This document shows positions 1-63,859 of a stretch of DNA of 64,000 bases, one piece after another. Under the pieces are notes generated by a model. The model worked only from the letters and a program-made list of their open reading frames with translations. It made no database searches and was not told the DNA's origin. The DNA is from Candidatus Hydrogenedentota bacterium (GTDB lineage Bacteria; Hydrogenedentota; Hydrogenedentia; Hydrogenedentales; CAITNO01): assembly GCA_012730045.1 (NCBI GenBank), contig JAAYBR010000100.1, positions 34,100 through 98,099 on the forward strand. The letters run 5' to 3'. Positions within the stretch are counted from its first letter, which is position 1. The number at the start of each line of letters is the position of its first letter. The translations under genes were made by a program, and so were the position numbers.

Positions 1-1038
1 CCGCGCAACCTCTCCCGCCTGTCCCTGCGCGTGTCCGCCGAGCAGCTGGACGGGACGCCGCTGCCGGCGCCGGCCTACGCCGTGGTGCCCAAGGAGGGCG
101 GCGGCCTGGTGTCGGACTGGACGCTCCAGGTGGTAAACAACGACTACACATTTGAGGCGCCCGCGGGCCGGGCCTTCCGCTACGGAGACTACGGCGAGCT
201 GATGGACATCACGGTGGACTCGGCGGTTCCCTTCAAGGTGCGGCTGGAGGTGCTGGACCCGCTCATCGGCGGGTCGCAGGACGGCAAGTATTTCACCAGT
301 CCGGACACCATCACAGTCGGGGACACCTTCTTCCAGGCCACGTCTTTCCCGAGGCCCAGGCTCGGTTACGACCCCGCGCCCGTCTTCACCAAGCCGGACG
401 TGGTGGACCTTGGGGCCGCGGGGCTTCAGGCCGACGTGGACGTCTTCAACATCGGCGGCTCGCACCCGCCCACGGACGTGGCCCTGCACTGGGTGATCCG
501 TCAGGGCGCGCTTTCCTGGCCCGGCAGGCAGACCGGCAGCTTCACCATTGACCCGATAGACGCCGAACTGATTCCGCCGGTGACGTCCACGGAGATTCCG
601 GGGCTGTGCGTCATTGCCCCCGACCGCGAGGCGGCGGAGCCGGGCCTCTACAGCGGCTCCTTCTACATGGACTTCACCTACGGCAGCCTGCCCTATTTCG
701 GCACCCTCGGCCCCTTCTATGTGCTGTACGCGGTCGAGCCGCCGAAGATGGAGATCGAGAACGCCGACCTCGACTTCGGGGATGCGGCCACCGAGCTGCC
801 CGCCAAGGTGACCAACACCGGCCAGGGCCTGCTGGAGTGGTCCATTGACACGGCGGACCTTCCTGAGTGGGTGTCCGTGACCAGCGCCGGTTCCGTGCTG
901 GGGCCGGGCCAGGAGGCCCCCTTCAATGTGCGCGTGGACAGGAGTGTCGTGGGGCCGGGAACCTATGTGAAGAACATCCAGGTCCGGGGCAACACCGGAC
1001 TGACGGACATGATCCATGTGCGGATGGTGAAGAACTGA
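1..1038 (+). CDS. 5'-truncated surface/secreted protein with C-terminal BACON/Ig-like beta-sandwich domain
   Basis: Frame is open from base 1 to TGA at 1036-1038. The C-terminal ~85 aa (LDFG...VTNTGQGLLEWSI...PEWVSV...GPGTY...IQV) has the BACON-like pattern. Codon usage is typical. Confidence 0.6.
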   Translation, partial: PRNLSRLSLRVSAEQLDGTPLPAPAYAVVPKEGGGLVSDWTLQVVNNDYTFEAPAGRAFRYGDYGELMDITVDSAVPFKVRLEVLDPLIGGSQDGKYFTSPDTITVGDTFFQATSFPRPRLGYDPAPVFTKPDVVDLGAAGLQADVDVFNIGGSHPPTDVALHWVIRQGALSWPGRQTGSFTIDPIDAELIPPVTSTEIPGLCVIAPDREAAEPGLYSGSFYMDFTYGSLPYFGTLGPFYVLYAVEPPKMEIENADLDFGDAATELPAKVTNTGQGLLEWSIDTADLPEWVSVTSAGSVLGPGQEAPFNVRVDRSVVGPGTYVKNIQVRGNTGLTDMIHVRMVKN

Positions 1039-1067
1039 CGGGCCCGCGGGCCCTTCCGCGAAACACA

Positions 1068-1101
1068 AAGCGGGCGTCCAACACCGGTTGGGCGCCCGCT
1101 T
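1068..1101. terminator. probable bidirectional intrinsic terminator hairpin
   Basis: aagcgggcgtccaac-accg-gttgggcgcccgctt is a 15-bp stem (one G-U pair) lying between convergent genes. Confidence 0.65.
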
Positions 1102-1114
1102 CCGTTGTTTCCGG

Positions 1115-2455
1115 CTATTCCTTCCAGGCCCTTCCGCAGCCGCAGTCGCCCGCTGCGGCCGACCTGGCCACGTTCTTGAGATGCTCCCACGAGAAGATGC
1201 CCGAGCTGTGCCCGTCGCTCCAGGAGAGGGCCACGGCGTAGTTCCCGAGGTACTGGAGCTCCTCCGCGTGGATGTCCTCCGGCACAGAGGCGGGGTCCAG
1301 TTTCTGCTCCCGCGTGTACTCGTCCACGCAGACGGCGCACTGGCAGGAGGCCCGCAGCGCCCGGTTGGGAATCCGGTCCTCCGTGCCGTCGGGCCAGAGC
1401 ACGGACACAAAGGCGAGGTCCGTGCGCACCTGCGGCTGCGGCCCCCGGCCCGCCCGGCGCATGCCGACGGCCCGGTGGAGGTTCGCGGCCAGCTGGGCGA
1501 AGGCGGGGATGTCCGCCCCGGCGTCGCGGGTGGCGGCGGTGTGCAGCCCCGGCAGGATGGGCAGGCGCGCCAGCGTGTCCAGGCCGAAGCGGTCCTTGAG
1601 CGCGCGGGTGCCGTCGCCGAAGGGGTGGTGTTCCCTGCCGCACCCGTCGCAGGTGAAGGAGGCCATGTTCTCCACGATCCCCAGCACCGGCACGTCCACC
1701 CGCTCAAACATGAGGATGCCCCGCGCGACGTCCACGAGGGACAGCGCCTGGGGCGTGGTCACGATGAGGGCGCCGTCCAGGGCCACCCGCTGTGTCAGGG
1801 TCAGCTGGATGTCACCGGTGCCCGGCGGCAGGTCAATGAGGAGGTAGTCGAGGGGGCCCCACTCCGTCTGGCCGAGCAGCTGCATGACATAGCCCGAGAC
1901 CATGGGCCCGCGCATGACGGCGGGCCGGTCGCCCAGCATGTAGCCCAGGCTCATGGTCTTCAGCCCGTCCACCTCCACCGGAAGAAACTGCTCGCCGAAG
2001 GAGACCACCTCCGGGTGGTGCGTGTTCAGCAGCGTCGGCAGCGACGGCCCGTGGACATCCGCGTCCAGCAGGCCCACCGCCAGCCCTTCGCGCTGAAGGG
2101 CGCGCGCCAGCAGGGCGGCCACGGTGGATTTTCCCACCCCGCCCTTGCACGAGGACACGGCCACGATCGCGCCGATCTGGCCCAGGTCCAGGTCCGGCTG
2201 GGCCTTTGACCGGTGCTGCGCCGTCATGGCCACCTCCACCCGGTCCACCCCGGGCAGCGCGCCCACGGCGGCCTCGGCCTGCCGCTTGAAGGCGTCCTTC
2301 ACCGGGCAGGAGGGGGTCGTCAGCTCGATGTCGAAGCTGACCGCGCCGCCCTCGATCTTTAGGTTTTTGACGAATCCGAGGGACACGATGTCCCGGTTCA
2401 GGTCGGGGTCCACGATGGCCCCGAGGGCCTCCAGGATCTGTGCTTCGGTGGCCAT
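1115..2455 (-). CDS. mrp: Mrp/NBP35 (ApbC) Fe-S cluster carrier ATPase with N-terminal DUF59 and C-terminal DUF971 domains
   Basis: DUF59 (DPDLNRDIVSLGFV...LTTPSCP), deviant Walker A CKGGVGKST, LLDADVHGPS, DLPPGTGD, VENMASFTCDGC, and DUF971 (CQCAVC...GNYAVALSWSDGHSSGIFSW). Confidence 0.92.
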   Translation of the reverse strand: MATEAQILEALGAIVDPDLNRDIVSLGFVKNLKIEGGAVSFDIELTTPSCPVKDAFKRQAEAAVGALPGVDRVEVAMTAQHRSKAQPDLDLGQIGAIVAVSSCKGGVGKSTVAALLARALQREGLAVGLLDADVHGPSLPTLLNTHHPEVVSFGEQFLPVEVDGLKTMSLGYMLGDRPAVMRGPMVSGYVMQLLGQTEWGPLDYLLIDLPPGTGDIQLTLTQRVALDGALIVTTPQALSLVDVARGILMFERVDVPVLGIVENMASFTCDGCGREHHPFGDGTRALKDRFGLDTLARLPILPGLHTAATRDAGADIPAFAQLAANLHRAVGMRRAGRGPQPQVRTDLAFVSVLWPDGTEDRIPNRALRASCQCAVCVDEYTREQKLDPASVPEDIHAEELQYLGNYAVALSWSDGHSSGIFSWEHLKNVARSAAAGDCGCGRAWKE

Positions 2456-2489
2456 GGTCCGGGGTCTCCTTTGGCGGGCCGCCGCGCGC

Positions 2490-2855
2490 TCAGGCGAACG
2501 CGTCGCCCTCGAACAGCAGTCCGCAGTAGAGGCACTTCTTGTGCCTGGAATTGCTCACACGCCCGCAGTTGGGGCACTTGACGGGGTGGCTGGTCAGTCT
2601 GCCGTCCGCCATTCCGTCGCGCAGGTCAATCTCCTGCGCCAGCTTCTCCAGTTCCGCGTCGGACAGGCTCGCCCGCGCCCTCACGAGCTCCCACATGGCC
2701 TGGCACATGAGGGCCAGCCGCTCCACCTGGTCACGGAGCTCCCGGATCTCCGACGCCTGCACGGGCGACTGCCGCGCGTCGGTGGCCCGGGGGCCCGCCT
2801 GGGGCAGGTCGGCCGTCGGGCCGGCGTCAAAGGGGTCGAAGAAGATGTTCGCCAT
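2490..2855 (-). CDS. small hypothetical protein with coiled segment and C-terminal zinc ribbon
   Basis: 121 aa with CPNC...CLYC. It has a GGAG RBS and lies in the same direction between glyA and mrp. Confidence 0.75.
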   Translation of the reverse strand: MANIFFDPFDAGPTADLPQAGPRATDARQSPVQASEIRELRDQVERLALMCQAMWELVRARASLSDAELEKLAQEIDLRDGMADGRLTSHPVKCPNCGRVSNSRHKKCLYCGLLFEGDAFA

Positions 2856-2879
2856 GGGACGGTCTCCTCGGGAGCCCGG

Positions 2880-4397
<1,518 letters not shown>

Positions 4398-4742
4398 GGC
4401 AGGCTCCTCAGGAATTAGGGTTGCGCGGTCCCGCGATCCTCCGGGAACCTCGGCGTCCGAGTATCGTACCCCGCAGGTGGCGGAAAAGGCAAACGCGCGC
4501 GCAGGGGAGTGTCCCGGCCCCGGCGCGGCTTCGATTTTCCCGGCATCCCTTCCTGCGGACGGGCGGCCTGCGGGGAACCGATGACTTTTAAAGTGATTGG
4601 ACCAGTTGAAAAAAAAGGTGTGTTTTGTTCGGTTTTTTGCTAATCATACTGAGGAAACCACGCAAACTGCGGTTGTGTGCTATTTTTTTCCGCTTGCTTT
4701 TTTCCCGGTTGTCTGGTACATTGTCCCTTGGAGGACTGAGCC

Positions 4743-5195
4743 ATGGATGTGCGAGAAGAACGCAAGGCCAAGTCCGGCGGCACAAGTGACGGGGGTTTCA
4801 CGCTTGTTGAGGTGATGTTCGCCGCAGGCACCCTCGCCTTGGCGCTCACCCTGCTGTTCGGATCCCTGATTTCCATCAACCTTATGGGGGAAGTCAATGA
4901 GGGGCGTGCCAAGGCCTCGAACCATCTGGCGAGTGTGATGGAGAGTCTTCGTTCGCGCTCCCTCAACGACGTTATCACGCAGGAAATCCCCCTTTACACA
5001 GAGGACCATGTGGAGATCGCCGTGGCGCTGGAGGCGGTGAACACGTCTGGCGAGCGGGTGAGTCTCCCCGTCACCGATGTGGTCCAGGCCATGGCGGCGC
5101 TTCCCGATCCCGTGGAGGTGGTGGCCACGGCCGTGTGGACAGACACGCGGGGCCGCATGTATACAAGCACGGCGTCCACGATGGTGGGGAGATGA
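4743..5195 (+). CDS. type IV minor pilin/pseudopilin (PilV-like)
   Basis: Prepilin cleavage motif GG|FTLVEVM followed by a hydrophobic helix; GGAGG RBS. Confidence 0.85.
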   Translation: MDVREERKAKSGGTSDGGFTLVEVMFAAGTLALALTLLFGSLISINLMGEVNEGRAKASNHLASVMESLRSRSLNDVITQEIPLYTEDHVEIAVALEAVNTSGERVSLPVTDVVQAMAALPDPVEVVATAVWTDTRGRMYTSTASTMVGR

Positions 5196-5199
5196 GTTC

Positions 5200-5784
5200 A
5201 TGGGCATGAACAACCGCGGCTTCACGCTTCTGGAGGTGATGACGGCCTCCGCCATTCTTTCGGTGCTCCTGCTGACGCTGTACGGCCTTTCAGAGGCGTT
5301 TGCCGGCACCGCGCAGGTGCAGCGGGCGAAAATTCAGGGAAACGAGGAGGCGCGCCGCGGGGTGCAGGTGGTGCTGCCCCTGGTGCGCATGGCCTCCCGC
5401 AGCACCGTGAACTGGAACCAGCTTCCCGGCCCCGTGCTCACGTTCCGCGCCGCGGAAGATGTGGACGGGAACGGCACGGCGGTCAATGTGGGCGCGCGGC
5501 TGGAGCTCGGCGCGGCCATCACCGTCGGTCCGGACCTGCAGGATGCAAACGAGGACGGGGTGACGGCCACGCAGCTGGTGATGGTCCAGGGCGACGTGGT
5601 CACCGTGCTGGCAAACCATTTGGTTGCGCCGCCCGGCGGGGCGCAGCCGACGGCGGACAACAGCGGTTTTTGGGTGACCCCGCGCGATGCGGGGGTTGAG
5701 TTGATGATCCGCGCCCAGGGCCGCACCGCCCGGGGGCGTGTCATGACAACCAGCATGTCGCAGTTTGCGGCGATGAGGAACTAG
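5200..5784 (+). CDS. type IV minor pilin/pseudopilin (PilW-like)
   Basis: NNRG|FTLLEVM prepilin motif. Start reassigned to ATG 5200, 4 nt after the upstream stop, with a GGAG RBS. Confidence 0.85.
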   Translation: MGMNNRGFTLLEVMTASAILSVLLLTLYGLSEAFAGTAQVQRAKIQGNEEARRGVQVVLPLVRMASRSTVNWNQLPGPVLTFRAAEDVDGNGTAVNVGARLELGAAITVGPDLQDANEDGVTATQLVMVQGDVVTVLANHLVAPPGGAQPTADNSGFWVTPRDAGVELMIRAQGRTARGRVMTTSMSQFAAMRN

Positions 5785-5786
5785 CC

Positions 5787-7625
5787 ATGAAGAGGAACAC
5801 CATTCGGCGTGGGGGCACCTCGGGCATGGCGCAGTTGACGGCGGTGATTTTCATCGCCGTCGCGGCGCTCATCATCGTGGCCGTTGCCACACGGCAGCTG
5901 GACCAGTTCAGGCTGGTGGAGCGCCACGAGGATTTCCAGATATGTTTCGACGGCGTGGAGTCCGCGCGGCTGCACAGCGTGGCCATTCTGGAGGGCGCCT
6001 CGACCGGCACCCCGGCGGCCGCGCCGCCGGAGGGGGTCAACCTCAATCCGGTTTCCACCTCGGGCATCGGCGCCTCGACCGCGAAAAGCGCGGCGGGCGG
6101 CGGCGCCAGCGGCGCCAGTGTCGGCCTGGAAACATGGGATCCTGTCTACGACTCGGACAACCGGATTGTGCTGCCCGAGTTTGACTCCACCGAGGCCAAT
6201 CCGGTGGAGCTTCCGGGCATGCCCGGGCTCGTCTACATGAGCTATGTGGCCGACTGGGCCAACGACAGCCGGGACAACAACGGCAACGGTGCGGTGGACG
6301 ACTTCGGCGAGCAGCTCGTGTTCAGCATCCACAGCGAGGCGCAGTACGAGGGGGTGCAGCGCGAGGTGGAGTCCGTGTACGTCGCGAAGGACATCAACGT
6401 GTGGAACAACGCCATCTTTGCGGGCACGGGGGCCGCCGGGCAGCTGATCAACGGCAATGTGAGCATCTACGGCTCCGTGCACCTGCTGGGCGATGATCTG
6501 GACCCGAGCAACCTGGCCGTGAACGCGATGGACCTCAGCGGCACGTCTATGATTCACAACAACTACGTCGGCATGCCCGGCACCCTGCGGTCGCGGGTGC
6601 CCGCCCTGCCCACCACCTTCGTGAACGGCAAGGAGGTGGAGACGCTGGACGCCGCGCTGCGGGTGCGCCGCGGCCTCGTCAGCCTGTCGGGCAACTCCGA
6701 AATCGGCGAGAGGAACAACGACGGCAACAGCGTGAAGGAGCTGATGGACGGCACCTTCAACACGGACGGGTGGGCGGGCAACGCCGTGATTCCCGACGGC
6801 GGGCGGGGCATCCCCCAGTCGGTGTGGAGCGACAACGGGTTCAACAACACCTACGACCTGGGCACCCGCATGTCGCTGCCCCTGCTCGACGACGACTGGC
6901 GCGAGACCGACGGCTCGCGCGTCATGAACCCCTACACGGGCACCTGGTACACCCACTCCGAGTACTTCAGCGAGGTGCTGCTGGCCGACCCGACCGCGCG
7001 GACCGACGGCATGTACAACAAGAACATGCTCATTGACACCGGGGCCAACGCCGCCTTCTACTGGAACGCGACGACGGGCCAGGAGCTCACCGGCGCCGCC
7101 GCGGTCGCCGCGGTGCCCGGCGCCAACGACGACTATATCAGCTTCAACCCGGTGACGAATGTGCTGAAGATCAACGGCCAGATCCGGATCAACGGGGACC
7201 TCGAATTCACGGGGAAGGGCAACGACACAACCATCAATTATTCCGGACGGGGCGCCATCCTGACCTATGGCGACGTCACCATTGACACGAACCTCCTGAC
7301 CTGCAACAACGGAAATCCGGCGGACACGGCCCTCAGCTATCCGGTGCGCAACGTGCTCGGCGTCATGTGTTCCCAGGACATGATGGTGGGAAGCAAGGCC
7401 CAGCTCGACATCATGGGCGCCTTCTATGCCGAGGGCCAAATTAAGACCATGAAGCAGACCAACGTGATAGGAACCTTCGTGTCCAACTACTTTGACATGG
7501 GTTCCCAAGTGCCGAACATCTACCAGGTGCCCGAGCTTTCGCGCAACCTGCCCTATGGCATGATCGGCAACTACCCGATCATGGACCTCTCCATGGTTTC
7601 CTGGCGCGAACTCCCGCAGAACTGA
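5787..7625 (+). CDS. large PilX/GspK-like pilin-associated protein
   Basis: Basic leader then G|MAQLTAVIFIAVAALIIVAV (no Glu5, as in the PilX class). Third gene of the pilin run, with a long Asn/Gly/Asp-rich extracellular body. Confidence 0.7.
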   Translation: MKRNTIRRGGTSGMAQLTAVIFIAVAALIIVAVATRQLDQFRLVERHEDFQICFDGVESARLHSVAILEGASTGTPAAAPPEGVNLNPVSTSGIGASTAKSAAGGGASGASVGLETWDPVYDSDNRIVLPEFDSTEANPVELPGMPGLVYMSYVADWANDSRDNNGNGAVDDFGEQLVFSIHSEAQYEGVQREVESVYVAKDINVWNNAIFAGTGAAGQLINGNVSIYGSVHLLGDDLDPSNLAVNAMDLSGTSMIHNNYVGMPGTLRSRVPALPTTFVNGKEVETLDAALRVRRGLVSLSGNSEIGERNNDGNSVKELMDGTFNTDGWAGNAVIPDGGRGIPQSVWSDNGFNNTYDLGTRMSLPLLDDDWRETDGSRVMNPYTGTWYTHSEYFSEVLLADPTARTDGMYNKNMLIDTGANAAFYWNATTGQELTGAAAVAAVPGANDDYISFNPVTNVLKINGQIRINGDLEFTGKGNDTTINYSGRGAILTYGDVTIDTNLLTCNNGNPADTALSYPVRNVLGVMCSQDMMVGSKAQLDIMGAFYAEGQIKTMKQTNVIGTFVSNYFDMGSQVPNIYQVPELSRNLPYGMIGNYPIMDLSMVSWRELPQN

Positions 7626-7633
7626 GGGTTTTC

Positions 7634-8485
7634 ATGAACGCGGAGTTTCTGCGGAAGAACGGGTGGATGGTGGGGATGTGCGCCGTGTGCCTTGTCGCAC
7701 TCGGCGCGGGGGTGGTTTCCCTCTTCACCGGGGGGGCGGAAAAGGAGGCCCCCGCCCGGAAAGTGCGCCGTCCGCACCCCGTGGCCGCCGACCAGCAGGA
7801 CCGGGCCCGGGAGATTTTTTACGCCGCCAAGGAGGCGGTTCCCGCCCCCACCAAGCGGGAGGAGCGCCTGGGCTATGTGGAGAAGTACCGGCGGCTGCTC
7901 GAGGAGGACCAGGACGCCCCGGAGACGCCCGTCACCCTGATGGCCCTGGGCCTCACCTACCGGCAGCTTCAGGATTTTGAGAACGCCGCATGGGCCTTCC
8001 ACGAGGTTATAGACCGTTATCCCCAGTCCAACCAGTGTATCCAGGCGTGGCTGGAACTCGGAACCTGCTATGAATTCACGGGCAACCAGGAGAAGATGAT
8101 CAGCACCTACATGGAGATGGCAAAAGCCTTTCCGCCCGACACGGACGCCCACAAGTTCGCGCAGAGCAAACTGAAGCTGCTGGACCTTCCCATGTCCGGC
8201 CCCGTGGCCGAGCCCGCCCCCGCGTCCGAGCCCGGTTTTGTACCCGATGTGGAGTTCGAGAGCACGTCCGCAGTGGCGGCGGAGGCCGCGCCCGCAGCGG
8301 AGGAGCCGGCGGTGGAGGAGGCCCCGTCCGCAGGGGAGGTTCCTGCCGCGGAGGAGGCTGCCGCGGCGGAGGAGGCACCCGCCGAAGCCGTTCCCGTCCC
8401 TGCGGCGGAACCCGTCCCCGCGGAGGCCCCCGTCGCTCCGGAGGAAGAGGCGCCGGCGGCGGAAACCGCCGCGCCCGCGCAGTAA
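7634..8485 (+). CDS. membrane-anchored TPR protein with Ala/Glu/Pro-rich C-terminal tail
   Basis: N-terminal TM segment, TPR-like helices (ALGLTYRQLQDFENAAWAFHEVIDRYP; AWLELGTCY), and a low-complexity PAAEE-type tail. Confidence 0.75.
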   Translation: MNAEFLRKNGWMVGMCAVCLVALGAGVVSLFTGGAEKEAPARKVRRPHPVAADQQDRAREIFYAAKEAVPAPTKREERLGYVEKYRRLLEEDQDAPETPVTLMALGLTYRQLQDFENAAWAFHEVIDRYPQSNQCIQAWLELGTCYEFTGNQEKMISTYMEMAKAFPPDTDAHKFAQSKLKLLDLPMSGPVAEPAPASEPGFVPDVEFESTSAVAAEAAPAAEEPAVEEAPSAGEVPAAEEAAAAEEAPAEAVPVPAAEPVPAEAPVAPEEEAPAAETAAPAQ

Positions 8486-8548
8486 GGGGCCGTTTTTTCC
8501 CGAAAGACCTGACAGGGGTGAGGTGTGTCCAAGACACGCGCGCGGAGC

Positions 8549-8701
8549 GCGCCTTGGAGTGCGCAAGCTCGCTTGCGCCTTCCAGACCGGGTTGCCACGG
8601 AATCTGCCAAGGGGCGGCGGAGCCCGGCGTGTCGTGTAAGCGTGCGCGCGGGCAAGCCCGCGCGAAGAAAGGCGGCAGCAAGCTGCCGCAGTCCAAGGCG
8701 C
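8549..8701. repeat. REP-like inverted-repeat doublet (GGAGTGCG family)
   Basis: gcgccttggagtgc at 8549 pairs with gcagtccaaggcgc at 8688 (1 mismatch), with internal hairpins. The segment cgcgggcaagcccgc.cgaagaaaggcggc.gcaagc recurs at about 22101-22138. Confidence 0.75.
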
Positions 8702-8848
8702 TTCGCGCCGCGCGAAGCTACGGTCAGCTCGGTGCCCAGCGGTCTGTTGGCGCGCGGGGTTGTGGGGACGGGAAGCGGGCGGCCCGGTCGAGACGCAGGC
8801 CGTGGTAGACTGTCCGCGTGCCGGGTGTTCTGGCGGGAGGTCATTGGC

Positions 8849-10306: not shown

Positions 10307-10314
10307 GGAGGGCG

Positions 10315-53953: not shown

Positions 53954-54912
53954 GCCGACGCCGGCCCCCCGGGCCGGTCCGTCTCGGCCAGCAGCTCGAT
54001 GATCGCGCGGAGCACGCCGTCGCGGTCCGTGCCCGCCGCGCCCAGGGCGATCTGCGCCTGCATCAGCCCGAACTTCGCGCTGATGTCGTATCGGATGCCC
54101 GACACCTCCAGCGCCAGGCAGCGCTCGCGGTTGGCGAGCTCCTGGAGCGCCGGGGTCAATTGCAGCTCCGCGTCGCCGCGCGCCGCCAGCCCCTCGCCCA
54201 GAATGTCAAAGATGCGGTGCGGCAGCGCGTGCATCCCGAAGAAGCAGAGGTAGTGGGCCGTGCGCAGCCCCGGCGTCTGGAGCTGCAGCTCCGCCTGGCT
54301 CACCGACGGCTTCTCCAGGATCCGCTCGACCTGGTAGACCCCGTCCAGGTCCGGCATCCGCCGTCCGCTCACCGTGCCGTAGCGCCCCACATGCCGCTCG
54401 TGGGTGGACTGCACCGCCGACACCGCCGCGTCCTCCTGCTCCGCCAGCCGGATCACCTGCTCCGCGCAGCGCCGGTCCCGCAGCGCCGAGATGTAGAGAT
54501 GGTCGTCCAGCAGCAGCAGGAACGACTCCCTGCCCACAAAATCCCGGGCGCACCACACCGCGTGGCCGTAGCCCAGCGGCTCCTCCTGCACGGCGAAGGA
54601 CAGCCGGGGGATCAGGTCCTCCAGCCGCGCCGCCTGTTCGCAGGCCCAGCCCGCGCCCCCGCACGCGCCCCGCAGGTTCTCCCGCAGCAGCCGGAGCTGG
54701 CGCAGGTACTGCTCCTCGTCCCCCGGCGCGCAGACAATGCACACCTCCTCGATGCCGCTGCGGATCGCCTCCTCCGCGATGATCTGGACCAGCGGCTTCG
54801 CCAGCCCGTCGCGGTCCACCAGCGGAAGCATCGCCTTCTGCACCGTGTCCGCCACCGGATACAGCCGCGCCCCGCGCCCCGCCGCCGTGATCACTGCCTT
54901 GCGTATCTTCAA
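53950..54912 (-). CDS. GalU-like sugar-phosphate nucleotidyltransferase
   Basis: KAVITAAGRGARLYP...QKAMLPL, QEEPLGYGHAV, LEKPS, LQLTPAL. TTG start; ATGA overlap with the fusion gene. Confidence 0.88.
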   Translation of the reverse strand: MKIRKAVITAAGRGARLYPVADTVQKAMLPLVDRDGLAKPLVQIIAEEAIRSGIEEVCIVCAPGDEEQYLRQLRLLRENLRGACGGAGWACEQAARLEDLIPRLSFAVQEEPLGYGHAVWCARDFVGRESFLLLLDDHLYISALRDRRCAEQVIRLAEQEDAAVSAVQSTHERHVGRYGTVSGRRMPDLDGVYQVERILEKPSVSQAELQLQTPGLRTAHYLCFFGMHALPHRIFDILGEGLAARGDAELQLTPALQELANRERCLALEVSGIRYDISAKFGLMQAQIALGAAGTDRDGVLRAIIELLAETDRPGGPASA

Positions 54913-55017
54913 AGGCCGACCCTTTCATGATCCGGCCCGGAATCAGGCATTGCCCGGGCCCGGACCAGCCTACCAGCGCCCCCCCGGCCAGTCAATTTTA
55001 CGCCCGGCCCGGGCCTC

Positions 55018-56541
55018 TCAAGGAGCGGCCGCCCCGCAGCGCACCTCGAAAACGTGCTCCGTGCCCACATCACTCCGGATGCGCAGGGTGTCGCCCTCCC
55101 GCGTGACCTCCGTCCACTCCTGTCCGTCCCGCAGGACCGTTGCCGGACCGGTGATCTTCTCGCACCGCAGTTCCGTCTTCCCCGAAAAGGACGGGTTCCC
55201 TTTCAGGACCACGAAACGGAGCACCGGCGCCCGGTATTCGGCGGCGCGCACGTAGATGTTTGGATAGTCCACCCCGGCAAGGGTCGGCGCGGCCAGAATC
55301 TCCGTGCGCGGTGTCCGGTAGAGGGTGCGCATGGAGTCGCCGTCGGTGGCCAGGGCCGCCGCGATGAGCCCCGTGGCCGATATGTAGTGTTTCGGGCACA
55401 CGTTGTAGTAATACGACTCGTTGCGGCCGTCGCCGTCCGTGTCCAGCGGCTTGCCGTAGGTTGCCTCCAGCCAGTTCAGCACCTCCCGCGCCCGGGGCGA
55501 GTCCTTCCCCTCCGCCTGCACGCCCGCCAGGGGGAGGAAGCTGTTGGCCACGCTCAGCGACCCGCCGCCGCAGCAGCCGATCACCTTGTTGTTCACGGCG
55601 TAGGCCCGGCCCTTTTCCGGGGTGACCCACTTGGCCTTCTTGCAGATGTGTTTCCAGCCCTCCTTGAGAAACCCGGGGTCCGGGAACCAGGGATAGCCCC
55701 AGCCGAGGGCCCAGCAGTCCGCGCCGACATCCCCCACCGGATAGAAGACCTCCTTCTTTTGGTCGTAGATGACGTAGAGGAACTCGCGGGTCAGGGGAAC
55801 CTTGTTGCGGAAATGGACCCGCATCCAGTCAAACCACCGGGGGTTAGCGTCGGCATACCGCGTGCCGTGGAGCAGGTCGAACAGCAGGAAAGAGTTTGCG
55901 CTGTGGGAGTTGCAGTCGGCGAAGACCAGCCCCGGCTCGCAGCAGATGCCGCCCGAGGGGCTGGCGAGGCTCTGGTCACGCAGCCCGCGCACGGCCTTTT
56001 CCAGGGTGTAGTGCGTCTTCCGGCCGTCCTCGGCAACGAAATCCCACCCCTCTTCGGAGTAGCGCATGTCGCCCGTCATCAGCTCATAGAGGCACATCAG
56101 CTGCGTGAGGTGCCCCGTGTACATGACGTTCTCGTAGCGGCAGGGGTCGGGCGGGTCGTCCCCGTAGTCCCAGTAGTGGGTGACATAGCACCAGGTCCGG
56201 CGGTCCACCATCCGCTCGCAGAGATCGCCGAGCTGGCGGGCTATCAGGTCGCGGTAGGCGGGCGTCCGCGCCGCCATGGCAACGCACCCGTACCCGCCAA
56301 AGGCAAACTGGTACCGGAACGCCGTGACATCCAGCTGCTTGCCGTCGTCATACCAGCCGATCCACGGATCCGCTTTATGGCCCTGCATGTGCGTGAGATG
56401 GGAGAACCACCGCTGGATGGCCAGCTCCCGGTCCGAAAGGCCCTCCCCCCATGCGGGCTCGTCGGCGGACGCTGGTCCGGACAGCAGGGAAAGGCCGCAC
56501 GCCAGACAGAACCACGCAAGACACCGCATACGCATGCCCAA
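55018..56541 (-). CDS. secreted linalool dehydratase/isomerase (LinD/Ldi)-family protein
   Basis: Signal peptide; RYQFAF..Y, DPCRYENVMYTGHL..LM.LYELMTGD.RY, GICCEPGLVFADCNS, DLLHGTRY align with recalled LinD motifs. Confidence 0.78.
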   Translation of the reverse strand: MGMRMRCLAWFCLACGLSLLSGPASADEPAWGEGLSDRELAIQRWFSHLTHMQGHKADPWIGWYDDGKQLDVTAFRYQFAFGGYGCVAMAARTPAYRDLIARQLGDLCERMVDRRTWCYVTHYWDYGDDPPDPCRYENVMYTGHLTQLMCLYELMTGDMRYSEEGWDFVAEDGRKTHYTLEKAVRGLRDQSLASPSGGICCEPGLVFADCNSHSANSFLLFDLLHGTRYADANPRWFDWMRVHFRNKVPLTREFLYVIYDQKKEVFYPVGDVGADCWALGWGYPWFPDPGFLKEGWKHICKKAKWVTPEKGRAYAVNNKVIGCCGGGSLSVANSFLPLAGVQAEGKDSPRAREVLNWLEATYGKPLDTDGDGRNESYYYNVCPKHYISATGLIAAALATDGDSMRTLYRTPRTEILAAPTLAGVDYPNIYVRAAEYRAPVLRFVVLKGNPSFSGKTELRCEKITGPATVLRDGQEWTEVTREGDTLRIRSDVGTEHVFEVRCGAAAP

Positions 56542-56790
56542 GCCTCCTTGCAGGGCGCCCGCGCACGGGCGTCCCGTCTCTAGAAAACCGCCGAGGCGGG
56601 GATAAGGGCGCTTTTCGACGCCCTCCCGCCACCCCCCCCCACTTTAGCAGGTCGCGCGCGGGACATCAACGCGCCGGGGCGCGAGGTTGACGCCCCCGGG
56701 CCTGTTCTGTTTCAATGCATGGGCGGCGTGTTTCGGCGGGATGGCCGCGCCGGCGCGTGCCGGGGCTGAACAGGGCGCGGAGGGCAGCGC

Positions 56791-58397
56791 ATGGCGGCGG
56801 GCGGGTTGAATCCCTTTGACATGGCGGTTATCGCGGTGTACCTCGCGGGCATTGTGGCGCTGGGGTGCTGGGCGGGGCTGCGCAAACGCAAGGGGGCGGC
56901 GGGGGACGGCTATTTTCTGGCGGGGCGCAGCCTGGGGTGGCCGGTGATCGGCATGGCGCTCTTCGCCACCAACATCTCGACCATCCATCTGGTGAGCCTC
57001 GCGCAGGAGGGCTACACGAACGGCCTGGCCTACGGGAATTTCGAGTGGATGGCGGGGTTCACGCTGATCCTCCTCGCCCTCTTCTTCGCCCCGTTCTATG
57101 TGCGGTCGCGGGTGGCCACACTGCCCGACTTCCTGGAGCGGCGCTACAGCCGCGCCAGCCGCGGCTGGCTTTCCCTCATTTCCATCGTGGCGGCCATCTC
57201 ATCCACATCGGTTTCTCCATCTACGCGGGGGCGGTGGTGCTTGAGGGGCTGTTTGGCATCAACAAGACGGCCAGCATCATCGCCGTCGCCCTGCTCACGG
57301 GGGCGTACACCATTGTCGGCGGCCTGATGGCCGTGGTGGTCACGGAGACAGTGCAGACGGTGATCCTCCTGCTCGGCGCCGTGGCGATGACGGTCAGCGC
57401 GTGGAATGCCCTGGGCGGCTGGGGAAACCTGACCGCCGCCGTGGACCCGGTGCAGCTCACCATGCTGCGCCCGGCGGGCGACCCGTCGGGCCTGCCGTGG
57501 TATGCCGTGTTTCTGGGCTATCCGGTCATTGGTATCTGGTACTGGTGCACGGACCAGACGATCGTGCAGCGCGTGCTGGGGGCGAAGGACGAGCACAACG
57601 CGCGGATGGGCGCGCTGTTTGCCGGATTCATCAAGATTCTGCCCGTGTTCATTTTCGTGCTCCCCGGCCTGATGTGCGCGGCCCTGGTCAGGACGGGGCG
57701 GGTGGAGGGCGCGCCGGAGAACTCCGAGCAGGTCTATGCGTTCATGATCGGGGCGCTCATGCCCGCCGGGCTGCGCGGGCTGCTTGCCGCGGCGCTGCTC
57801 GCCGCGCTGATGAGCACCGTTTCGGCGGCCCTGAACTCCGCCGCCACGCTTTTCACCCACGACCTGTACCGGCGTTTTCGTCCCGACGCGGACGACCGGC
57901 GGCTCGTCCGGGTGGGGCGGATCGTCACGTTTGCGGGCATGGTGCTGGCCGTCCTGTGGTCGCCCTTTCTGGGGCGGTACCCCACGGTCTTTCAGGGGGT
58001 GAACGCCGCCATCAGCTACATCGCGCCGCCCATCACGGTCGTGTTCCTGTTCGGCGTGTTCTGGCGGCGGGCCTCGTCGCGGGCGGCCATTGCCACGCTG
58101 GTCACGGGCTCCGCCGCCGGATTCGCCGTGTTTCTGCTGGACTGGTTCAGGGAGTTCACGGGCTGGAATGTGCCCTTCATGATGGCGGGGTTCTACCTGG
58201 CCGTCCTGTGCTCCGCCGTGATGGTTCCCGTGTCCTGGCTCTTTCCCGATCCGCCCAGCGCGGAGCGGGACGCCCTGGTGTGGTCCAGCCCGCTGGCCGC
58301 GTTCCGGGGCGCGACCGGCAGGGGGCTGGCGGACTACCGGGTCGTCGCGGGGCTCCTTTTCGGCATAATGGTCGCGCTGTATGTGGTGTTTGCCTGA
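56791..58397 (+). pseudogene. sodium:solute symporter (SSS) with a single-base frameshift at about 57199
   Basis: The N-part (YFLAGRSLGW..IG..LFATNIS..FLERRY) and the C-part (WYWCTDQTIVQRVL, AALMST..AALNS) are in different frames. The junction ATC TC ATC CAC restores to IFIH with one added T. Confidence 0.8.
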
Positions 58398-58428
58398 GTC
58401 GGTTGTCCACACACCGGGAGAACAGGTC

Positions 58429-58854
58429 ATGCGAAAGGCGGCATGGGCGGCGGTGTTCGTCGCGCTGGGGATGCTCGCGGGCTGCCGGCACGCCGGGCTG
58501 GGTCCGGACGACGCCGTCCAGCGCTTCGGCAGCGTCATTGGCCTGAAGGCGGAGAAGCTGGACTACTACAAGGAACTGCATGCCAACGCCTGGCCCGGCG
58601 TGCTGGACAAGATCCGGGAGTGCAACATTCAGAACTACTCGATCTACCTCCACCGGCTGGACGACGGCAACTACTACCTTTTCAGCTACTTCGAGTACAC
58701 CGGAGAGGATTTCAAGGGGGACATGGCCCGGATGGCCGCCGATCCCCTCACGCAGAAATGGTGGAAGGAGACCGACCCCTGCCAGTTCGCCGTCAAGCAC
58801 CGCGCCGAAGGCGAGTGGTGGGCGGACATGGAGGAGGTGTTCCACACCCCGTAA
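58429..58854 (+). CDS. L-rhamnose mutarotase-family protein with lipoprotein signal
   Basis: Lipobox LAGC; YKELHANAWP, IQNYSIYL, LFSYFEY, KWWKET, EEVFH. Confidence 0.85.
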   Translation: MRKAAWAAVFVALGMLAGCRHAGLGPDDAVQRFGSVIGLKAEKLDYYKELHANAWPGVLDKIRECNIQNYSIYLHRLDDGNYYLFSYFEYTGEDFKGDMARMAADPLTQKWWKETDPCQFAVKHRAEGEWWADMEEVFHTP

Positions 58855-58891
58855 ACCCGCCGCGTTCGCGCGCGGCACAGGAGGATGATCC

Positions 58892-60187
58892 ATGGAGATG
58901 AACCGCCGCTCGTTTGTGAAGACCGCCGTGGCCGGAACCGCGGCGGGAATGTTCGCCGTGGACGCCCTCGGGGCCAATGAGCGGGTGCGCCTCGGCGTGC
59001 TCGGCACGGGCAACCGGGGCGGCCAGCTCATTGACATGATTCTGAAGCACCCGAACGCCGAGATTGTGGCGCTGTGCGATGTCTACCATCCGCATCTGGA
59101 CAAGGCCCGTGCGCGGCTGGATGGCAGGCCCGACGTGTTCACGGACTACCGGAAGCTGCTGGAGCGGAAGGATATAGACGCGGTCTTTGTGGCGACGCCC
59201 GACCATTGGCACGCCCTCCAGTGCGTGGACGCCTGCGAGGCGGGTAAGGATGTCTACGTCGAGAAGCCCCTGTCCGTCACCATCCACGAGGGGCGGCGCA
59301 TGGTCGAGGCCGCGCGCCGGACGAACCGGGTGGTCCAGGTCGGTGTGCAGCGCCGGTCCAGCCTCATGTATGCCGACCTGGCGCAGAAGGTGAAGGACGG
59401 GCTGATCGGCAAGGTGACCGTCGCCCGGACCTACCGCCTGTCCAACATGTGGCCCGCCGGCATGGGGAAGGGACAGGACGCCGACCCGCCCGCGGACCTC
59501 AACTGGGACCTGTGGCTCGGGCCCCGGCCCCTGCGCCCCTTCCGCGACACCATCGCCCCCTACAAGTTCCGTTGGTGGGGCGCCTACTCCTCCCAGATCG
59601 CCAACTGGGGCATTCACTTCATTGACTCCCTCCGCTGGATGCTCGGCGAGGAGGCCCCCGACGCCGTTGTGTCCCTTGGCGGCCGCTTCGCCGTGGACGA
59701 CGACCGCGACATCCCGGACACCATGGAGACGACCTTTCAGCTCCCCGGCGGCTGCCTGCTGATCTTCGGCCAGTACGAGGCCAACCAGAACAACCCGCTC
59801 AAGCGCGGGCATTTCGAGCTGCGCGGCACCAACGGCACCCTCTACATCGAGGACGGCGGCTACGAGATCGTGCCGGAGAAGGGCGGCCAGTTCCAGGACC
59901 CGAAGCCGCGCATGGAGGCCGTCACGCAGAAGAACCCGCTGGACCCCGCCGGGGACTTCACCATCGCCCACATCGGGAACTTCCTCGACTGCATAAAGAC
60001 CCGCGCGCTGCCCCTCGCCGATGTGGAGGTCGGCCACCGCTCCACCACCTTCTCCCACCTCGGGAACATCGCCCTCGCCACCGAGTCCCTCCTCAAGTGG
60101 GACGCGAAGGCGGAGCGGGTCACCAACAACGAGGCGGCCAACGGGCTGCTTCATTACGAATACCGCGAGCCGTGGAAACTGGGGTGA
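58892..60187 (+). CDS. Tat-exported Gfo/Idh/MocA oxidoreductase
   Basis: NRRSFVK, GVLGTGNRG, ATPDHWHA, DVYVEKP, LNWDLWLGP, NWGIHFID. Confidence 0.93.
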   Translation: MEMNRRSFVKTAVAGTAAGMFAVDALGANERVRLGVLGTGNRGGQLIDMILKHPNAEIVALCDVYHPHLDKARARLDGRPDVFTDYRKLLERKDIDAVFVATPDHWHALQCVDACEAGKDVYVEKPLSVTIHEGRRMVEAARRTNRVVQVGVQRRSSLMYADLAQKVKDGLIGKVTVARTYRLSNMWPAGMGKGQDADPPADLNWDLWLGPRPLRPFRDTIAPYKFRWWGAYSSQIANWGIHFIDSLRWMLGEEAPDAVVSLGGRFAVDDDRDIPDTMETTFQLPGGCLLIFGQYEANQNNPLKRGHFELRGTNGTLYIEDGGYEIVPEKGGQFQDPKPRMEAVTQKNPLDPAGDFTIAHIGNFLDCIKTRALPLADVEVGHRSTTFSHLGNIALATESLLKWDAKAERVTNNEAANGLLHYEYREPWKLG

Positions 60188-60228
60188 GCGCGCCGGGAGC
60201 GGTTCCCTTCACACAATGGGGACACACG

Positions 60229-62148
60229 ATGAGAAACGGCCTGGCTTCAGCGGCATGGATCCTTGCCTGCGCGTTTGCGCTGGCCGCCAACGGCGAGGGG
60301 CTGCGCGTTGAGGCGGTCCCCGCCGCCGGAGGGCATGTCTGCAAGGTCACCGACGGGCAGGGGGACGCCTTCCTGCCGGTTGCGGGGGAGGGGCTGCGGG
60401 TGCTTCAGCCGGCCGGGGAGACGCTCGTTTCCTTTTCCAGTGTGAAGGAGGACTCCGGCGGCAGTTGGCAGTTCGCAGACGGCAGGATTCCGGGGCTCGT
60501 GCTCACCGACGCCTACCGCGCCCTGGGCCCGGAGCTTCTGGAGCGGGTGGTGACCGTGACCGCTGAAAGCGACCAGCGGTATTTCCTGGACCTGGGATGG
60601 CGCTGCCCCCGGAAAGGCGTCATGCACTCCTTCACCGGCCCCGAGGAGAAGGCTGCGTCCTACACCCCCGGATGCGGCGGCCCCGAATTCGGCGGCGGGT
60701 CCCTCCAGACCTTTCCCTTCCTCGGCCTGCTGTCCGAAGGGCGGCTGTACGGCGTCATCGGCGACACGCCGGGGCTGTGGGAAAACCGGTCCTTCATGGC
60801 CTTCGACCCGGCGTCGGGCGCCCTGTCCCTGACCAACGGCGACGGCTCCCCGAAGCGGGTCATCGCCATTCCGACGAACGTGGACGCAACCACGGTCTAC
60901 CGGGCGCGGTTCGACGGGTGGCAGCACATCGAGGCGGGGGAGACGCAGACCTTCACCACCTGGATTTTCGCGTCCCCCGCGAGGACGCAGTACGACGTCC
61001 AGCTGGCGGCCCATCTGGCGCTGGCCAACGCCAGGGGGTTCAGCGGGTCCGCCGTCGAGGCCATCCTGCGCAACACCTCCTACCTGCTGCTGCGCCGCAA
61101 CCTCCTCCGCCCCGAAAGCGACTACCTGTTCATCTCAGGGGTCGGCTACGGCTGGAAGCAGTGGGTGTCCGACGGGTTCTGGATGAGCCGCGGGCTCGAC
61201 GACCCGCGCTACGACGCCGAGGCGCAGGCCGCCGTCTTCTACGAGCGCATCCACTACGAGGACAACGCCCAGTACTATCTCATCTGGTCCGCCCTCGTGA
61301 AGCGGGCGGGCGGGACGGTGGACATGCGCACCGTGGACCGGGCCTACCAGTTCATCCGCGAACACGAGGTGGACGGTCTCTACCGTCCCCCCCGGCTGAC
61401 GGCCAACTCCATCATCATGCGCACCTACCACGACCAGCTCCCCTACGAGGACGGGGATGCGCAGTCGTCGAACCAGGGGTTCCACTGCGGCGCGCTGATG
61501 GCCGCCCGCGAGCTGGGATACCCCGTGACGGAGGAGGACATCCAGAGGGCCAAGGACGGATACGCCCGGATATTTAACCGGGAGGGCGGCTACATGGCCA
61601 CCAGCCTGATGCAGCAGGACCATGTCGGGCAGGACGGGTTCTACGGCGCCATGCTCACCTACTGCGTCTTCGGCGAGAAGACGCTCCCCGACGACCTGGT
61701 GCGCACCCACCTCGAGACCACCATGCGCATCCAGTCCCCCCACGGGATGCGGGTCATCTCCAATGCCGACGGCAGCCTGCTGGAGGGGCACACGGGCGTC
61801 TACACCCACGGCGGGTCGTGGTTCCTCAACGACGCGGCGAACTACCTCGCCGGGCTGATCCACGGCATGGATCCCGCCTGGGTGGACGAAAAGCTCCTCT
61901 GGCGCCTGGAGAAGGAGCTCGCCTTCATGCCCGCCTTCCACGAGTCCATCAGCACGGTCCACGGCAAGCCCCACGGCCACCACCTCTACTCCTGGAACTC
62001 CGGATTCTGGTGGCTCCGCCGCGAAACGCGCGCACGGATGGGCATGGACGGCCCCGACCCGCTCTACGCCGCCCTCGACGCCAAACTGGGCGTCAACAGG
62101 GAAGGGGAGGCCCTGGTCTTCACTCCCGGAAACCGCACCTATCCCTGA
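60229..62148 (+). CDS. secreted hypothetical protein, probable beta-sandwich plus (alpha/alpha)6 glycosidase-like fold
   Basis: Signal peptide; C-terminal half has W..D (QWVSD), SSNQG and YTHGGSW motifs reminiscent of six-hairpin glycosidases. Confidence 0.55.
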   Translation: MRNGLASAAWILACAFALAANGEGLRVEAVPAAGGHVCKVTDGQGDAFLPVAGEGLRVLQPAGETLVSFSSVKEDSGGSWQFADGRIPGLVLTDAYRALGPELLERVVTVTAESDQRYFLDLGWRCPRKGVMHSFTGPEEKAASYTPGCGGPEFGGGSLQTFPFLGLLSEGRLYGVIGDTPGLWENRSFMAFDPASGALSLTNGDGSPKRVIAIPTNVDATTVYRARFDGWQHIEAGETQTFTTWIFASPARTQYDVQLAAHLALANARGFSGSAVEAILRNTSYLLLRRNLLRPESDYLFISGVGYGWKQWVSDGFWMSRGLDDPRYDAEAQAAVFYERIHYEDNAQYYLIWSALVKRAGGTVDMRTVDRAYQFIREHEVDGLYRPPRLTANSIIMRTYHDQLPYEDGDAQSSNQGFHCGALMAARELGYPVTEEDIQRAKDGYARIFNREGGYMATSLMQQDHVGQDGFYGAMLTYCVFGEKTLPDDLVRTHLETTMRIQSPHGMRVISNADGSLLEGHTGVYTHGGSWFLNDAANYLAGLIHGMDPAWVDEKLLWRLEKELAFMPAFHESISTVHGKPHGHHLYSWNSGFWWLRRETRARMGMDGPDPLYAALDAKLGVNREGEALVFTPGNRTYP

Positions 62149-62191
62149 CTGGCGCCCCCAGGAGGGCCGGCCAAACCGTCCCGGCGTCGGT

Positions 62192-62330
62192 CCCTGATCG
62201 CCGGATAAGATGTCGTGAGAACCGAAGCCGAAGCGAGAACGTGATTGCCGCAGTCGCTCCGCTCCTTCGCAATGACGTGTGTTTTTGCGGTCATTGCGAG
62301 GAGGCCGCCCCGGCCGACGCGGCAACCTCT
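62192..62330. repeat. ATCGCCGGATAAG motif plus CGTC-type repeat doublet
   Basis: atcgccggataagatgtcgtgaga (from 62197), gtgattgccgcagtcgctccgctccttcgcaatgac, gtcattgcgaggaggccgccccggccgacgcggcaacctc. Confidence 0.85.
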
Positions 62331-62539
62331 TGTTGGAAAGCCTCAGGTTCTCCGCATGTCACGGGGTGAATGGACACCTTTGCGCCCCGTCGGCGCTTTC
62401 ACCATGAACCCACAAGACGCACGCCCCTCCAGTGCTTTCACGGCCCGGTGCTTGTCCGGCGATCAGGCGCTTTCTTCTTGCTTTTCGGGTTTCGTTTGTT
62501 GAGAATGGTGCTTTCCCCTTTCACTGAAGGAGCCCAACC

Positions 62540-63859
62540 ATGGCAGAGAAACGTCTTCTTTCACGCAGGTCCTTTCTGAAGCGCTCGTCGCTGGCGCTGG
62601 CCCCGGCGGTTTTCCCCGCCATCATCCCCGGCTCCGCGCTGGGGCTGAACGGGGCGGTGGCGCCGAGCAACCGCATCGTCATGGCGTCCATCGGCGTGGG
62701 CGGCCAGGGGTCGTATGACACCAAGGCCCTCATGAGCATCCCGGACGTGCAGTACGCGGCGGTGTGCGACGTGGACCGCAAGCACTGCGCGGCGGCGCGG
62801 GAGATGGTGTCGTCGTTCTACGCGGACAAGAGCCCCGACGGGAAGTTCGACGGCATCCAGGAGCACCACGACTTCCGCGAGGTGATGGCGCGGGATGACA
62901 TTGACGCCGTCATGATCGCGACGCCGGACTTCTGGCACCCCATCGTCAGCGTGGCGGCGGCCGAGGCGGGCAAGGACATCTACTGCGAGAAGCCGCTGGC
63001 GAACTCGATCCCCGAGGGCCGCGCGGTGGTGGACGCGGTGCGGCGGTACCGGCGGGTGTTCCAGACGGGCAGCCACGAGCGCAGCCGCGACAACGCGCGC
63101 TACGCCTGCGAGCTGGTGCGCAACGGCCGCATCGGCAAGCTGCACACGATCTCGGTGAACCTGCCGATTGACAACCACGGCCCCATCGGCAACCAGCCGG
63201 AGATGCCGGTGCCGGAGGAGCTGGACTACAACTTCTGGCTCGGCCCGGCGCGCGAGGCGCCCTACACGGAGAAGCGCTGCCACTTTTACTTCCGCTACAT
63301 CATGGACTACAGCGGCGGCGAGATGACGGACCGGGGCGCGCACATCATTGACCTCGGCCAGCTCGGCAACGGCTCCGACGACACGACCCCCGTCACCGTC
63401 GAGGGCAAAGGCTGGTTCCCAGAGGACGGCCTGTTCAACACGGCGATGGACTACACCTTTCAGTTCGAGTACGCGAACGGCGTGGTGATGAAGGGCGCGT
63501 GCAAGGGTCCGCGCGGCGTCCGCTTCGAGGGCAGCGACGGCTGGGTGTTCATCCATGTCCACGGCGGCAACCTGGAGGCGTCGAACCCGGCGCTGCTCAA
63601 GGAGGTCATCGGGCCGGAGGAGCTCCAGCTCGGCCGCAGCAAGGGCCACCATGTGGACTTCATCGAGTGCGTGAAGACCCGCGGCGAGGCGAAGGCCCCC
63701 GTGGAGGTCGGCCACCACACGGCGACCATGTGCCACATGGCGAACATCGCCATGAAGGTGGGCCGCAAGCTGCGCTGGGACCCCGTCAAGGAGCAGTTCG
63801 ACGACGACACGGCGAACCGCATGATGCACCCCTCCATCCGCGCCCCGTGGCGCATCTGA
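62540..63859 (+). CDS. Tat-exported Gfo/Idh/MocA oxidoreductase
   Basis: SRRSFLK, SIGVGGQG, ATPDFWH, DIYCEKP, LDYNFWLGPA, DRGAHIID. Confidence 0.93.
   Translation: MAEKRLLSRRSFLKRSSLALAPAVFPAIIPGSALGLNGAVAPSNRIVMASIGVGGQGSYDTKALMSIPDVQYAAVCDVDRKHCAAAREMVSSFYADKSPDGKFDGIQEHHDFREVMARDDIDAVMIATPDFWHPIVSVAAAEAGKDIYCEKPLANSIPEGRAVVDAVRRYRRVFQTGSHERSRDNARYACELVRNGRIGKLHTISVNLPIDNHGPIGNQPEMPVPEELDYNFWLGPAREAPYTEKRCHFYFRYIMDYSGGEMTDRGAHIIDLGQLGNGSDDTTPVTVEGKGWFPEDGLFNTAMDYTFQFEYANGVVMKGACKGPRGVRFEGSDGWVFIHVHGGNLEASNPALLKEVIGPEELQLGRSKGHHVDFIECVKTRGEAKAPVEVGHHTATMCHMANIAMKVGRKLRWDPVKEQFDDDTANRMMHPSIRAPWRI

Follow-up and report, generated by a model that had tools for sequence, protein, structure and literature searches.

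Avoidance of the degenerate palindrome RTCGAY in a Candidatus Hydrogenedentota genome

RTCGAY counts in the window and the genome

The stretch of DNA analysed here, referred to as the window, comprises 64,000 nt of the Candidatus Hydrogenedentota metagenome-assembled genome (MAG) G000 (contig C86:34100-98099) and carries 39 called genes, among them dnaK. It contains no copy of the degenerate palindrome RTCGAY: in an exact count, the four words GTCGAC, ATCGAC, GTCGAT and ATCGAT were each found zero times. Related words were frequent. GTCGA occurred 51 times and TCGAC 48 times, and the flanking variants CTCGAC, GTCGAG and TTCGAC were counted 23, 28 and 25 times, with GTCGAA likewise in the range of 23-28. 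A conditional (Markov) expectation derived from these counts amounts to approximately 25 RTCGAY sites, which gives a Poisson probability of about 1e-11 for finding none. A second null model permuted synonymous codons inside each gene, so that every protein and the codon usage of each gene were preserved. For the called genes of the window it predicted 52.7 ± 4.6 sites, with a minimum of 42 in 200 shuffles. The original prediction, which had reported a window without RTCGAY where tens of sites were expected, thus withstood both the exact count and the codon-preserving shuffle. The positions it had given as examples were also correct, each showing ATTGAC or ATAGAC for plus-strand cases and GTCAAT for minus-strand ones (Table 1).

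The analysis was extended to the entire G000 assembly, which consists of 4.46 Mb in 155 contigs with a G+C content (GC) of 68.3% and is 97.5% complete, plasmids possibly missing. Genes were called as long open reading frames (ORFs) with a third-position GC (GC3) above 0.75, which yielded 2,759 genes covering 83% of the genome. Under a fourth-order Markov model, 154 RTCGAY sites were observed against 1,837 expected. The four words had the four lowest observed/expected ratios (O/E) among all 4,096 hexamers, ranging from 0.03 to 0.14 (GTCGAC 30/917, GTCGAT 47/370, ATCGAT 22/158 and ATCGAC 55/392). Within coding sequences the codon shuffle revealed an even larger deficit, with 94 sites compared to 3,827 ± 51 expected, a ratio of 0.025. 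In the same shuffle, YTCGAR reached 0.63, the mixed classes 0.88 and TCGA overall 0.63. By the Markov model the TCGA core had an O/E of 1.12 and is therefore not avoided, as had been proposed from the window. The twelve remaining NTCGAN words ranged from 0.29 to 1.9. The mixed words, including CTCGAC, GTCGAG and ATCGAG, occurred at or above expectation, and CTCGAC, GTCGAG and TTCGAC were over-represented. TTCGAA (0.29) and CTCGAG (0.39) showed merely moderate deficits, as many other palindromes do. The under-representation is hence specific to RTCGAY and follows neither from the TCGA core nor from composition, as is characteristic of restriction-site avoidance. Among named sequences, the dnaK regions closest to that of G000 come from Candidatus Hydrogenedentota MAGs. 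The sequence of G000 was met again in metagenomes of bioreactors, wastewater and sediment dated 2016 to 2025 and is therefore not the artefact of one assembly.

Table 1. Features of the window and restriction-modification (R-M)-type loci elsewhere in G000 (m5C, 5-methylcytosine; L202 and L204 are loci of other assemblies)
Feature	Location	Strand	Basis or remark
Whole window free of RTCGAY despite 182 TCGA cores	1..64000		Exact counts and codon shuffle
TTC ACC ATT GAC CCG ATA GAC; both Ile-Asp pairs use the rare ATT and ATA, not ATC	541..561	+	Sequence
dnaK, 0 RTCGAY	24382..26277	+	Codon-aligned orthologue comparison
Examples in dnaK of ATT-GAC where relatives have ATC-GAC	24400, 25108	+	Codon-aligned orthologue comparison
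Ile-Asp as ATT-GAC (plus-strand GTCAAT)	1832..1837	-	Sequence
Further GTCAAT cases	2625, 19561, 21585, 40312, 49137, 51170	-	Sequence
m5C methyltransferase and NgoMIV-like nuclease	C124
m5C methyltransferase and Eco29kI-like nuclease	C8
m5C methyltransferase and DUF4928 protein	C11:12062-14081		Pair; methyltransferase (PF00145) at C11:12864-14081
Two MmeI-family enzymes	C10, C77
Type IIG enzyme	C22:49744-52920		HSDR_N, Eco57I and TaqI_C domains
PglX-like enzyme	C72
Type I HsdM	C27
Type ISP enzyme	C95
N6_N4 methylase, 631 amino acids (aa)	C24		A type III-like Mod is also listed in the defence load
Beta-class N6_N4 methyltransferase, 294 aa	C143:323-1204
Beta-class methyltransferase with overlapping 197-aa ORF	C143:1-1213; L202:2810-4290; L204:214-1688
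Orphan, circularly permuted N6_N4 methyltransferase	C147:1558-2412

Codon choice, reading frames and residual sites

The codon usage of G000 reflects the avoidance directly. ATC and GTC are strongly preferred codons, yet ahead of GAC they were nearly absent. ATC-GAC was observed 48 times against 1,268 expected (0.04x), and its place was taken by ATT-GAC (1,219 pairs, 4.3x) and ATA-GAC (476 pairs, 6.65x). GTC-GAC was found 16 times where 1,609 were expected, with GTG-GAC raised to 1.7x and GTT-GAC at just 0.6x. The control pairs ATC-GAG (1.06) and GTC-GAG (0.85) were normal, as were CTC-GAC and TTC-GAC. The preference for ATT or ATA before Asp, and for GTG-GAC in Val-Asp pairs, had been read from the window and thus holds for the whole genome. 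The GTCGAC deficit is deeper than that of the words containing A, and a simple reading is that replacing GTC by GTG, the Val codon used most, costs nothing, and that ATC has rare alternatives only. Of the 1,866 ATA codons of the genome, 489 (approximately 26%) stand ahead of Asp and are attributed to site avoidance. The Ile-Asp dipeptide itself occurred at 0.79 of expectation, compared to 0.98-1.18 for Val-, Leu-, Phe- and Met-Asp, values that have no outgroup baseline; this shortfall of about 20% suggests that some of the avoidance reaches the protein level. In dnaK, the orthologues of non-depleted Hydrogenedentota carry 2-8 RTCGAY sites, and in conserved Ile-Asp columns these relatives use ATC-GAC where G000 has ATT-GAC.

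The depletion was present in all three codon frames, with ratios to the shuffle of 0.025 for RTC-GAY, 0.13 for xxR-TCG-AYx and 0.016 for xRT-CGA-Yxx. Uncalled segments of up to 400 bp (238 kb in total) contained 10 RTCGAY sites against 35.5 expected; GTCGAC was absent from these short intergenic segments, in comparison to values of 28.5 for GTCGAA and 27.5 for GTCGAG. Independence of reading frame and coding status is a property of restriction-site avoidance. Selection thus acts on the DNA and not on translation, and it is specific to RTCGAY.

The sites that remain in G000 are unevenly distributed. In 2-kb segments below 60% GC, the density of RTCGAY was 47-56 per 100 kb and the ratio RTCGAY/TCGA was 0.14, near the 0.2-0.25 of non-depleted genomes. 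At 68% GC or more, density and ratio fell to 0.7-1.5 per 100 kb and 0.003-0.005, so that low-GC segments held 30-70x more sites. Many of those that remain are located within R-M genes or other islands of atypical character. This pattern is as expected if long-resident DNA was purged and recent arrivals were not.

RTCGAY in relatives and known systems of this specificity

To place the trait within the order, GTCGAC and ATCGAC/GTCGAT were counted in 40 relatives and compared with a mononucleotide expectation in which the dnaK locus of each genome served as proxy for its GC. Ratios below 0.1 were obtained in the genus of G000 (G000 0.045, G002 0.040), in genus g2 (G003, 0.032), in four of the five members of genus g4 (0.019-0.089) and in both members of g18, which belongs to another family (0.055 and 0.058). 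G017, the sole depleted member of its genus, reached 0.12. Intermediate ratios of 0.2-0.6 were found in G001 (of the same genus as G000), G008, G021, G034, G015 (g3) and in g6 (G007, G013), and weaker deficits of 0.6-0.8 in G004 and G010 (g3), G006 (g5) and G025. All remaining relatives were at approximately 1-2. The congener G001 holds 3-5x more sites than G000 or G002. In the depleted relatives the palindromic and the asymmetric words drop together, and RTCGAY is therefore the avoided unit in those genomes also. The trait is persistent within some genera, patchy across the order and absent from most of it. A dnaK tree, four rows of which had been read in the wrong frame, left it undecided whether the depleted genera are a single clade and was not used. 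Persistence consequently applies to certain genera; the trait is not uniformly inherited over the order.

Eight contigs retrieved for other purposes (L221, L227, L062, L336, L328, L313, L316 and L326) likewise hold hardly any RTCGAY over stretches of 10-23 kb. They belong to unrelated Chloroflexota, Verrucomicrobiota and unidentified sediment organisms, with counts such as 1 vs 16-29, 3 vs 23 and 0 vs 12. Avoidance of RTCGAY recurs widely, sporadically and independently in environmental bacteria.

The specificity itself is documented. RTCGAY is listed as a restriction site of Bifidobacterium breve UCC2003, and bisulfite sequencing identified RT-m5C-GAY as the most abundant m5C motif of B. breve. 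M.Bbr28III is cited as an m5C methyltransferase for RTCGAY (RT-m5C-GAY), and M.HgiDII is an m5C enzyme for GTCGAC. The system of B. breve has the same degenerate recognition sequence as the word avoided in G000; enzymes of exactly this specificity therefore exist, and attributing the avoidance to an R-M system, as in the original prediction, was reasonable. GTCGAC (SalI/HgiDII) and ATCGAT (ClaI/BseCI) are both subsets of RTCGAY. Two separate six-base cutters, however, would leave ATCGAC and GTCGAT untouched, and yet the deficit of these words is as strong as that of ATCGAT.

Probable restriction-site avoidance and its possible agents

The avoidance of restriction sites is textbook knowledge, and palindrome avoidance in prokaryotic genomes was reportedly described by Gelfand & Koonin 1997, Rocha et al. 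2001 and Rusinov et al. 2015. G000 resembles these classical cases in that a short palindrome is selectively rare genome-wide and its one-base neighbours are spared, and in that close relatives share the pattern and recent DNA is relaxed. It differs in the 40-fold deficit relative to the codon shuffle, in the quarter of its ATA codons spent on avoidance and in that a cognate R-M system was not identified in the genome. We consider classical long-term restriction-site avoidance under a type II enzyme recognizing RTCGAY, including one encoded on unbinned DNA, to be the probable explanation. It is favoured because of the symmetry of the site, the documented specificity, the frame-independent purge, the replacements driven by codon availability, the gradient between islands and resident DNA and the phyletic patchiness; the richness of G000 in R-M systems also counts for it. 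The palindromic R...Y symmetry and the documented RTCGAY systems lead us to infer a type IIP-like R-M enzyme as the agent. Its gene may be one of the R-M loci of G000, may reside on an unbinned plasmid or island, or may already be lost.

In such a scenario the lineage would have been exposed for long to a type II endonuclease cutting RTCGAY, encoded in its own genome or by repeatedly invading elements. An unmethylated chromosomal site would risk a double-strand break, for instance upon loss or invasion of the system or upon incomplete methylation. The data show that purifying selection has removed sites through the cheapest available point change. In coding DNA this is synonymous recoding, from ATC to ATT or ATA and from GTC to GTG before Asp and to other Ser and Arg codons in the remaining frames; in intergenic DNA any substitution serves. 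Newly acquired low-GC DNA retains RTCGAY at near-neutral density.

Several observations weigh against this interpretation. At least 12 R-M-type loci were found in G000 (Table 1), and none of them could be linked to RTCGAY; the search for a responsible type II system or orphan methyltransferase, suggested along with the original prediction, thus ended without an assignment. The three strongest candidates, on C11, C143 and C22, were examined through their phyletic distribution or through RTCGAY depletion around homologous loci, and none gained support. The part of that prediction which stands is the specific selection at the DNA level, shared with congeners and several further genera; the R-M system proposed along with it was not tied to any locus. 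In addition, G000 scarcely avoids the sites presumed for its NgoMIV-like and Eco29kI-like systems (GCCGGC 0.65, CCGCGG 0.61). Two complete R-M systems with barely avoided sites indicate that the presence of R-M alone does not explain so extreme a depletion. B. breve has RTCGAY in abundance and does not avoid it, unlike G000, where moreover no homologue of the B. breve system was assignable. No match to PF00145, the family of all three m5C methyltransferases of G000, was found in the strongly or moderately depleted G003, G005, G032 and G034, so a shared m5C enzyme cannot account for the whole pattern, and among the relatives the presence of m5C enzymes does not track depletion. The m5C methyltransferase encoded next to the DUF4928 gene was rejected as part of an RTCGAY system, as DUF4928 is confined to G000, G002 and G018, methylase homologues of 36-42% identity are spread over genomes with and without depletion, and the flanks of four DUF4928 homologues of 65-70% identity from other phyla keep ATCGAC, GTCGAT and ATCGAT.

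The beta-class N6_N4 methyltransferase on contig C143 was equally unconvincing as the RTCGAY enzyme. At high identity its module is confined to this genus; in other phyla, 80 loci with methylase homologues of 62-76% identity and 45 loci with homologues of the neighbouring nuclease have RTCGAY at its expected frequency and share no depleted word, and the module itself holds two RTCGAY sites. In each of the three MAGs of the genus the methylase is found at the end of its contig, and in G000 that contig ends inside the gene downstream of it. The full neighbour was recovered from three other assemblies with an identical methylase. It encodes a protein of 197 aa with a PD-(D/E)xK-like motif (D...ExK; SDADRVIEGRRIEIK), which overlaps the methylase gene by 4 bp and has more than 1,100 homologues in many phyla, including Meiothermus; it matched no Pfam family and no solved relative by sequence. 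Judged from sequence, the two genes look like an uncharacterized type II R-M family with no specificity assigned. The orphan methyltransferase on C147 was discarded as well, being a core gene in 27 of the 41 genomes irrespective of depletion. For RE_XamI (PF09572), the family of the SalI isoschizomer XamI, no match was obtained in the 41 genomes, but the controls were silent too, which renders this search uninformative.

Different agents or processes were weighed against restriction-site avoidance by a type IIP pair. A solitary nuclease, a TaqI-like type IIG fusion or an undescribed defence or modification system would accord with the fact that no conserved type IIP pair tracks depletion across genera, and it is mildly encouraged by a depletion far deeper than that of the sites of the R-M pairs present. 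The type IIG enzyme of G000, with its Eco57I and TaqI_C domains, has a suggestive distribution, as homologues occur in the depleted G003, G017 and G008. Their specificity domains are, however, just 64%, 43% and 44% identical, the non-depleted G020 has homologues of 36-38%, the enzyme was not found in the depleted G002, G005, G011, G019, G032 and G040, and in 80 metagenome loci the identity of the specificity domain was unrelated to depletion. Type IIG sites are normally asymmetric, and the 154 remaining sites would be cut by a nuclease lacking a protecting methylase. An agent of this broader kind is therefore rated as unlikely. We consider it likewise unlikely that the purge is kept up by a nuclease or defence system with no or incomplete self-protection by methylation, whose host survives mainly by being nearly free of sites. 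If true, foreign DNA with the common ATC-GAC and GTC-GAC pairs would be excluded, and the idea would explain the depth of the depletion beyond that of present R-M pairs, the lack of a tracking pair and the sporadic depletion in unrelated phyla. Little more can be said for the footprint of a lost system, in which an RTCGAY enzyme of the ancestors of several Hydrogenedentota genera has disappeared from G000 and its trace decays. The missing cognate system, the higher site number of G001, the intermediate ratios of several related genera and the near-neutral density in acquired islands would all agree with it. Given the strong preference for ATC and GTC, though, sites should regenerate fast once selection ends, and the O/E of 0.01-0.04 at Ile-Asp and Val-Asp pairs speaks for selection that still operates or ceased very recently. 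MAGs routinely miss plasmids and islands, and a gene missing from the bin therefore carries little weight. Loss in the past is accordingly an improbable cause.

The remaining two alternatives dispense with a nuclease altogether. Methylation to RT-m5C-GAY followed by deamination of m5C to T could erode the sites by mutation, and it finds some support in the known RTCGAY methyltransferase being an m5C enzyme, in the three m5C methyltransferases of G000 and in the excess of ATT-GAC, the C-to-T product of ATC-GAC. Yet the corresponding product of GTC-GAC, GTT-GAC, is reduced, with the excess going to the C-to-G product GTG-GAC; ATA-GAC, which requires a C-to-A change, is enriched above ATT-GAC; and both ATTGAT (0.44) and ATCAAT (0.41) are under-represented. 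An excess of the deamination products RTTGAY/RTCAAY was thus not found. Depleted genomes without an m5C methyltransferase and the abundance of the methylated motif in B. breve speak against it further. Decay by deamination is largely refuted by this replacement spectrum and essentially excluded, and we assign it a very small probability. Smaller still, close to nil, is that of a bias at the level of translation, in the form of codon-pair preferences or a general avoidance of TCGA or CpG. Some codon-pair bias around TCGA is indicated by its overall ratio in the codon shuffle, but the value for RTCGAY lies far below those of the other TCGA classes, the depletion extends to all frames and to intergenic DNA, ATC-GAG and GTC-GAG are normal, and related genomes of the same biology retain RTCGAY. 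General TCGA or codon-pair bias, named beforehand as a possible origin of the deficit, does not account for it.

G000 adds a case from a candidate phylum to a known phenomenon with an already catalogued specificity, and conceptually it contributes nothing new to restriction-site avoidance. Its value is that it shows, very cleanly and in numbers, codon preference giving way to a constraint on the DNA that is linked to defence. From it one would predict that gene flow into these uncultured bacteria of wastewater and sediment is strongly hindered, and it offers a practical rule for their transformation, namely that RTCGAY should be avoided or pre-methylated. The contrast between depleted and non-depleted genera provides a phyletic signal that may be used to find the responsible enzyme by association once complete genomes or methylomes become available.

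Some additional observations concern the defence genes and other palindromes. The R-M and defence load of G000 is unusually heavy for a 4.5-Mb genome. The orphan C147 methyltransferase has native codon usage (GC3 0.89) and is 60-95% identical across the 27 genomes of the order; it lies approximately 1.5 kb from a gene for a 905-aa protein with MshEN and DnaA-ATPase domains, with a thioredoxin-like gene in between, and is a candidate for a lineage-wide housekeeping DNA methylase. Among other words, CTAG is strongly depleted throughout G000 (664 vs 3,659, O/E 0.18), and moderate deficits were found for AGATCT (0.34), CGTACG (0.37) and CGATCG (0.37) alongside those of TTCGAA and CTCGAG. Control columns of the pattern searches showed that many relatives (G003, G026, G029-G032, G034-G038 and G040) contain 27-150 copies of CAGCTG, the PvuII site, per genome, compared to 500-2,400 in others, and that in genus g18 the count of CAGCTA/TAGCTG falls to 5-13. 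Within the order, several palindromes seem to have been purged independently, each in particular lineages.

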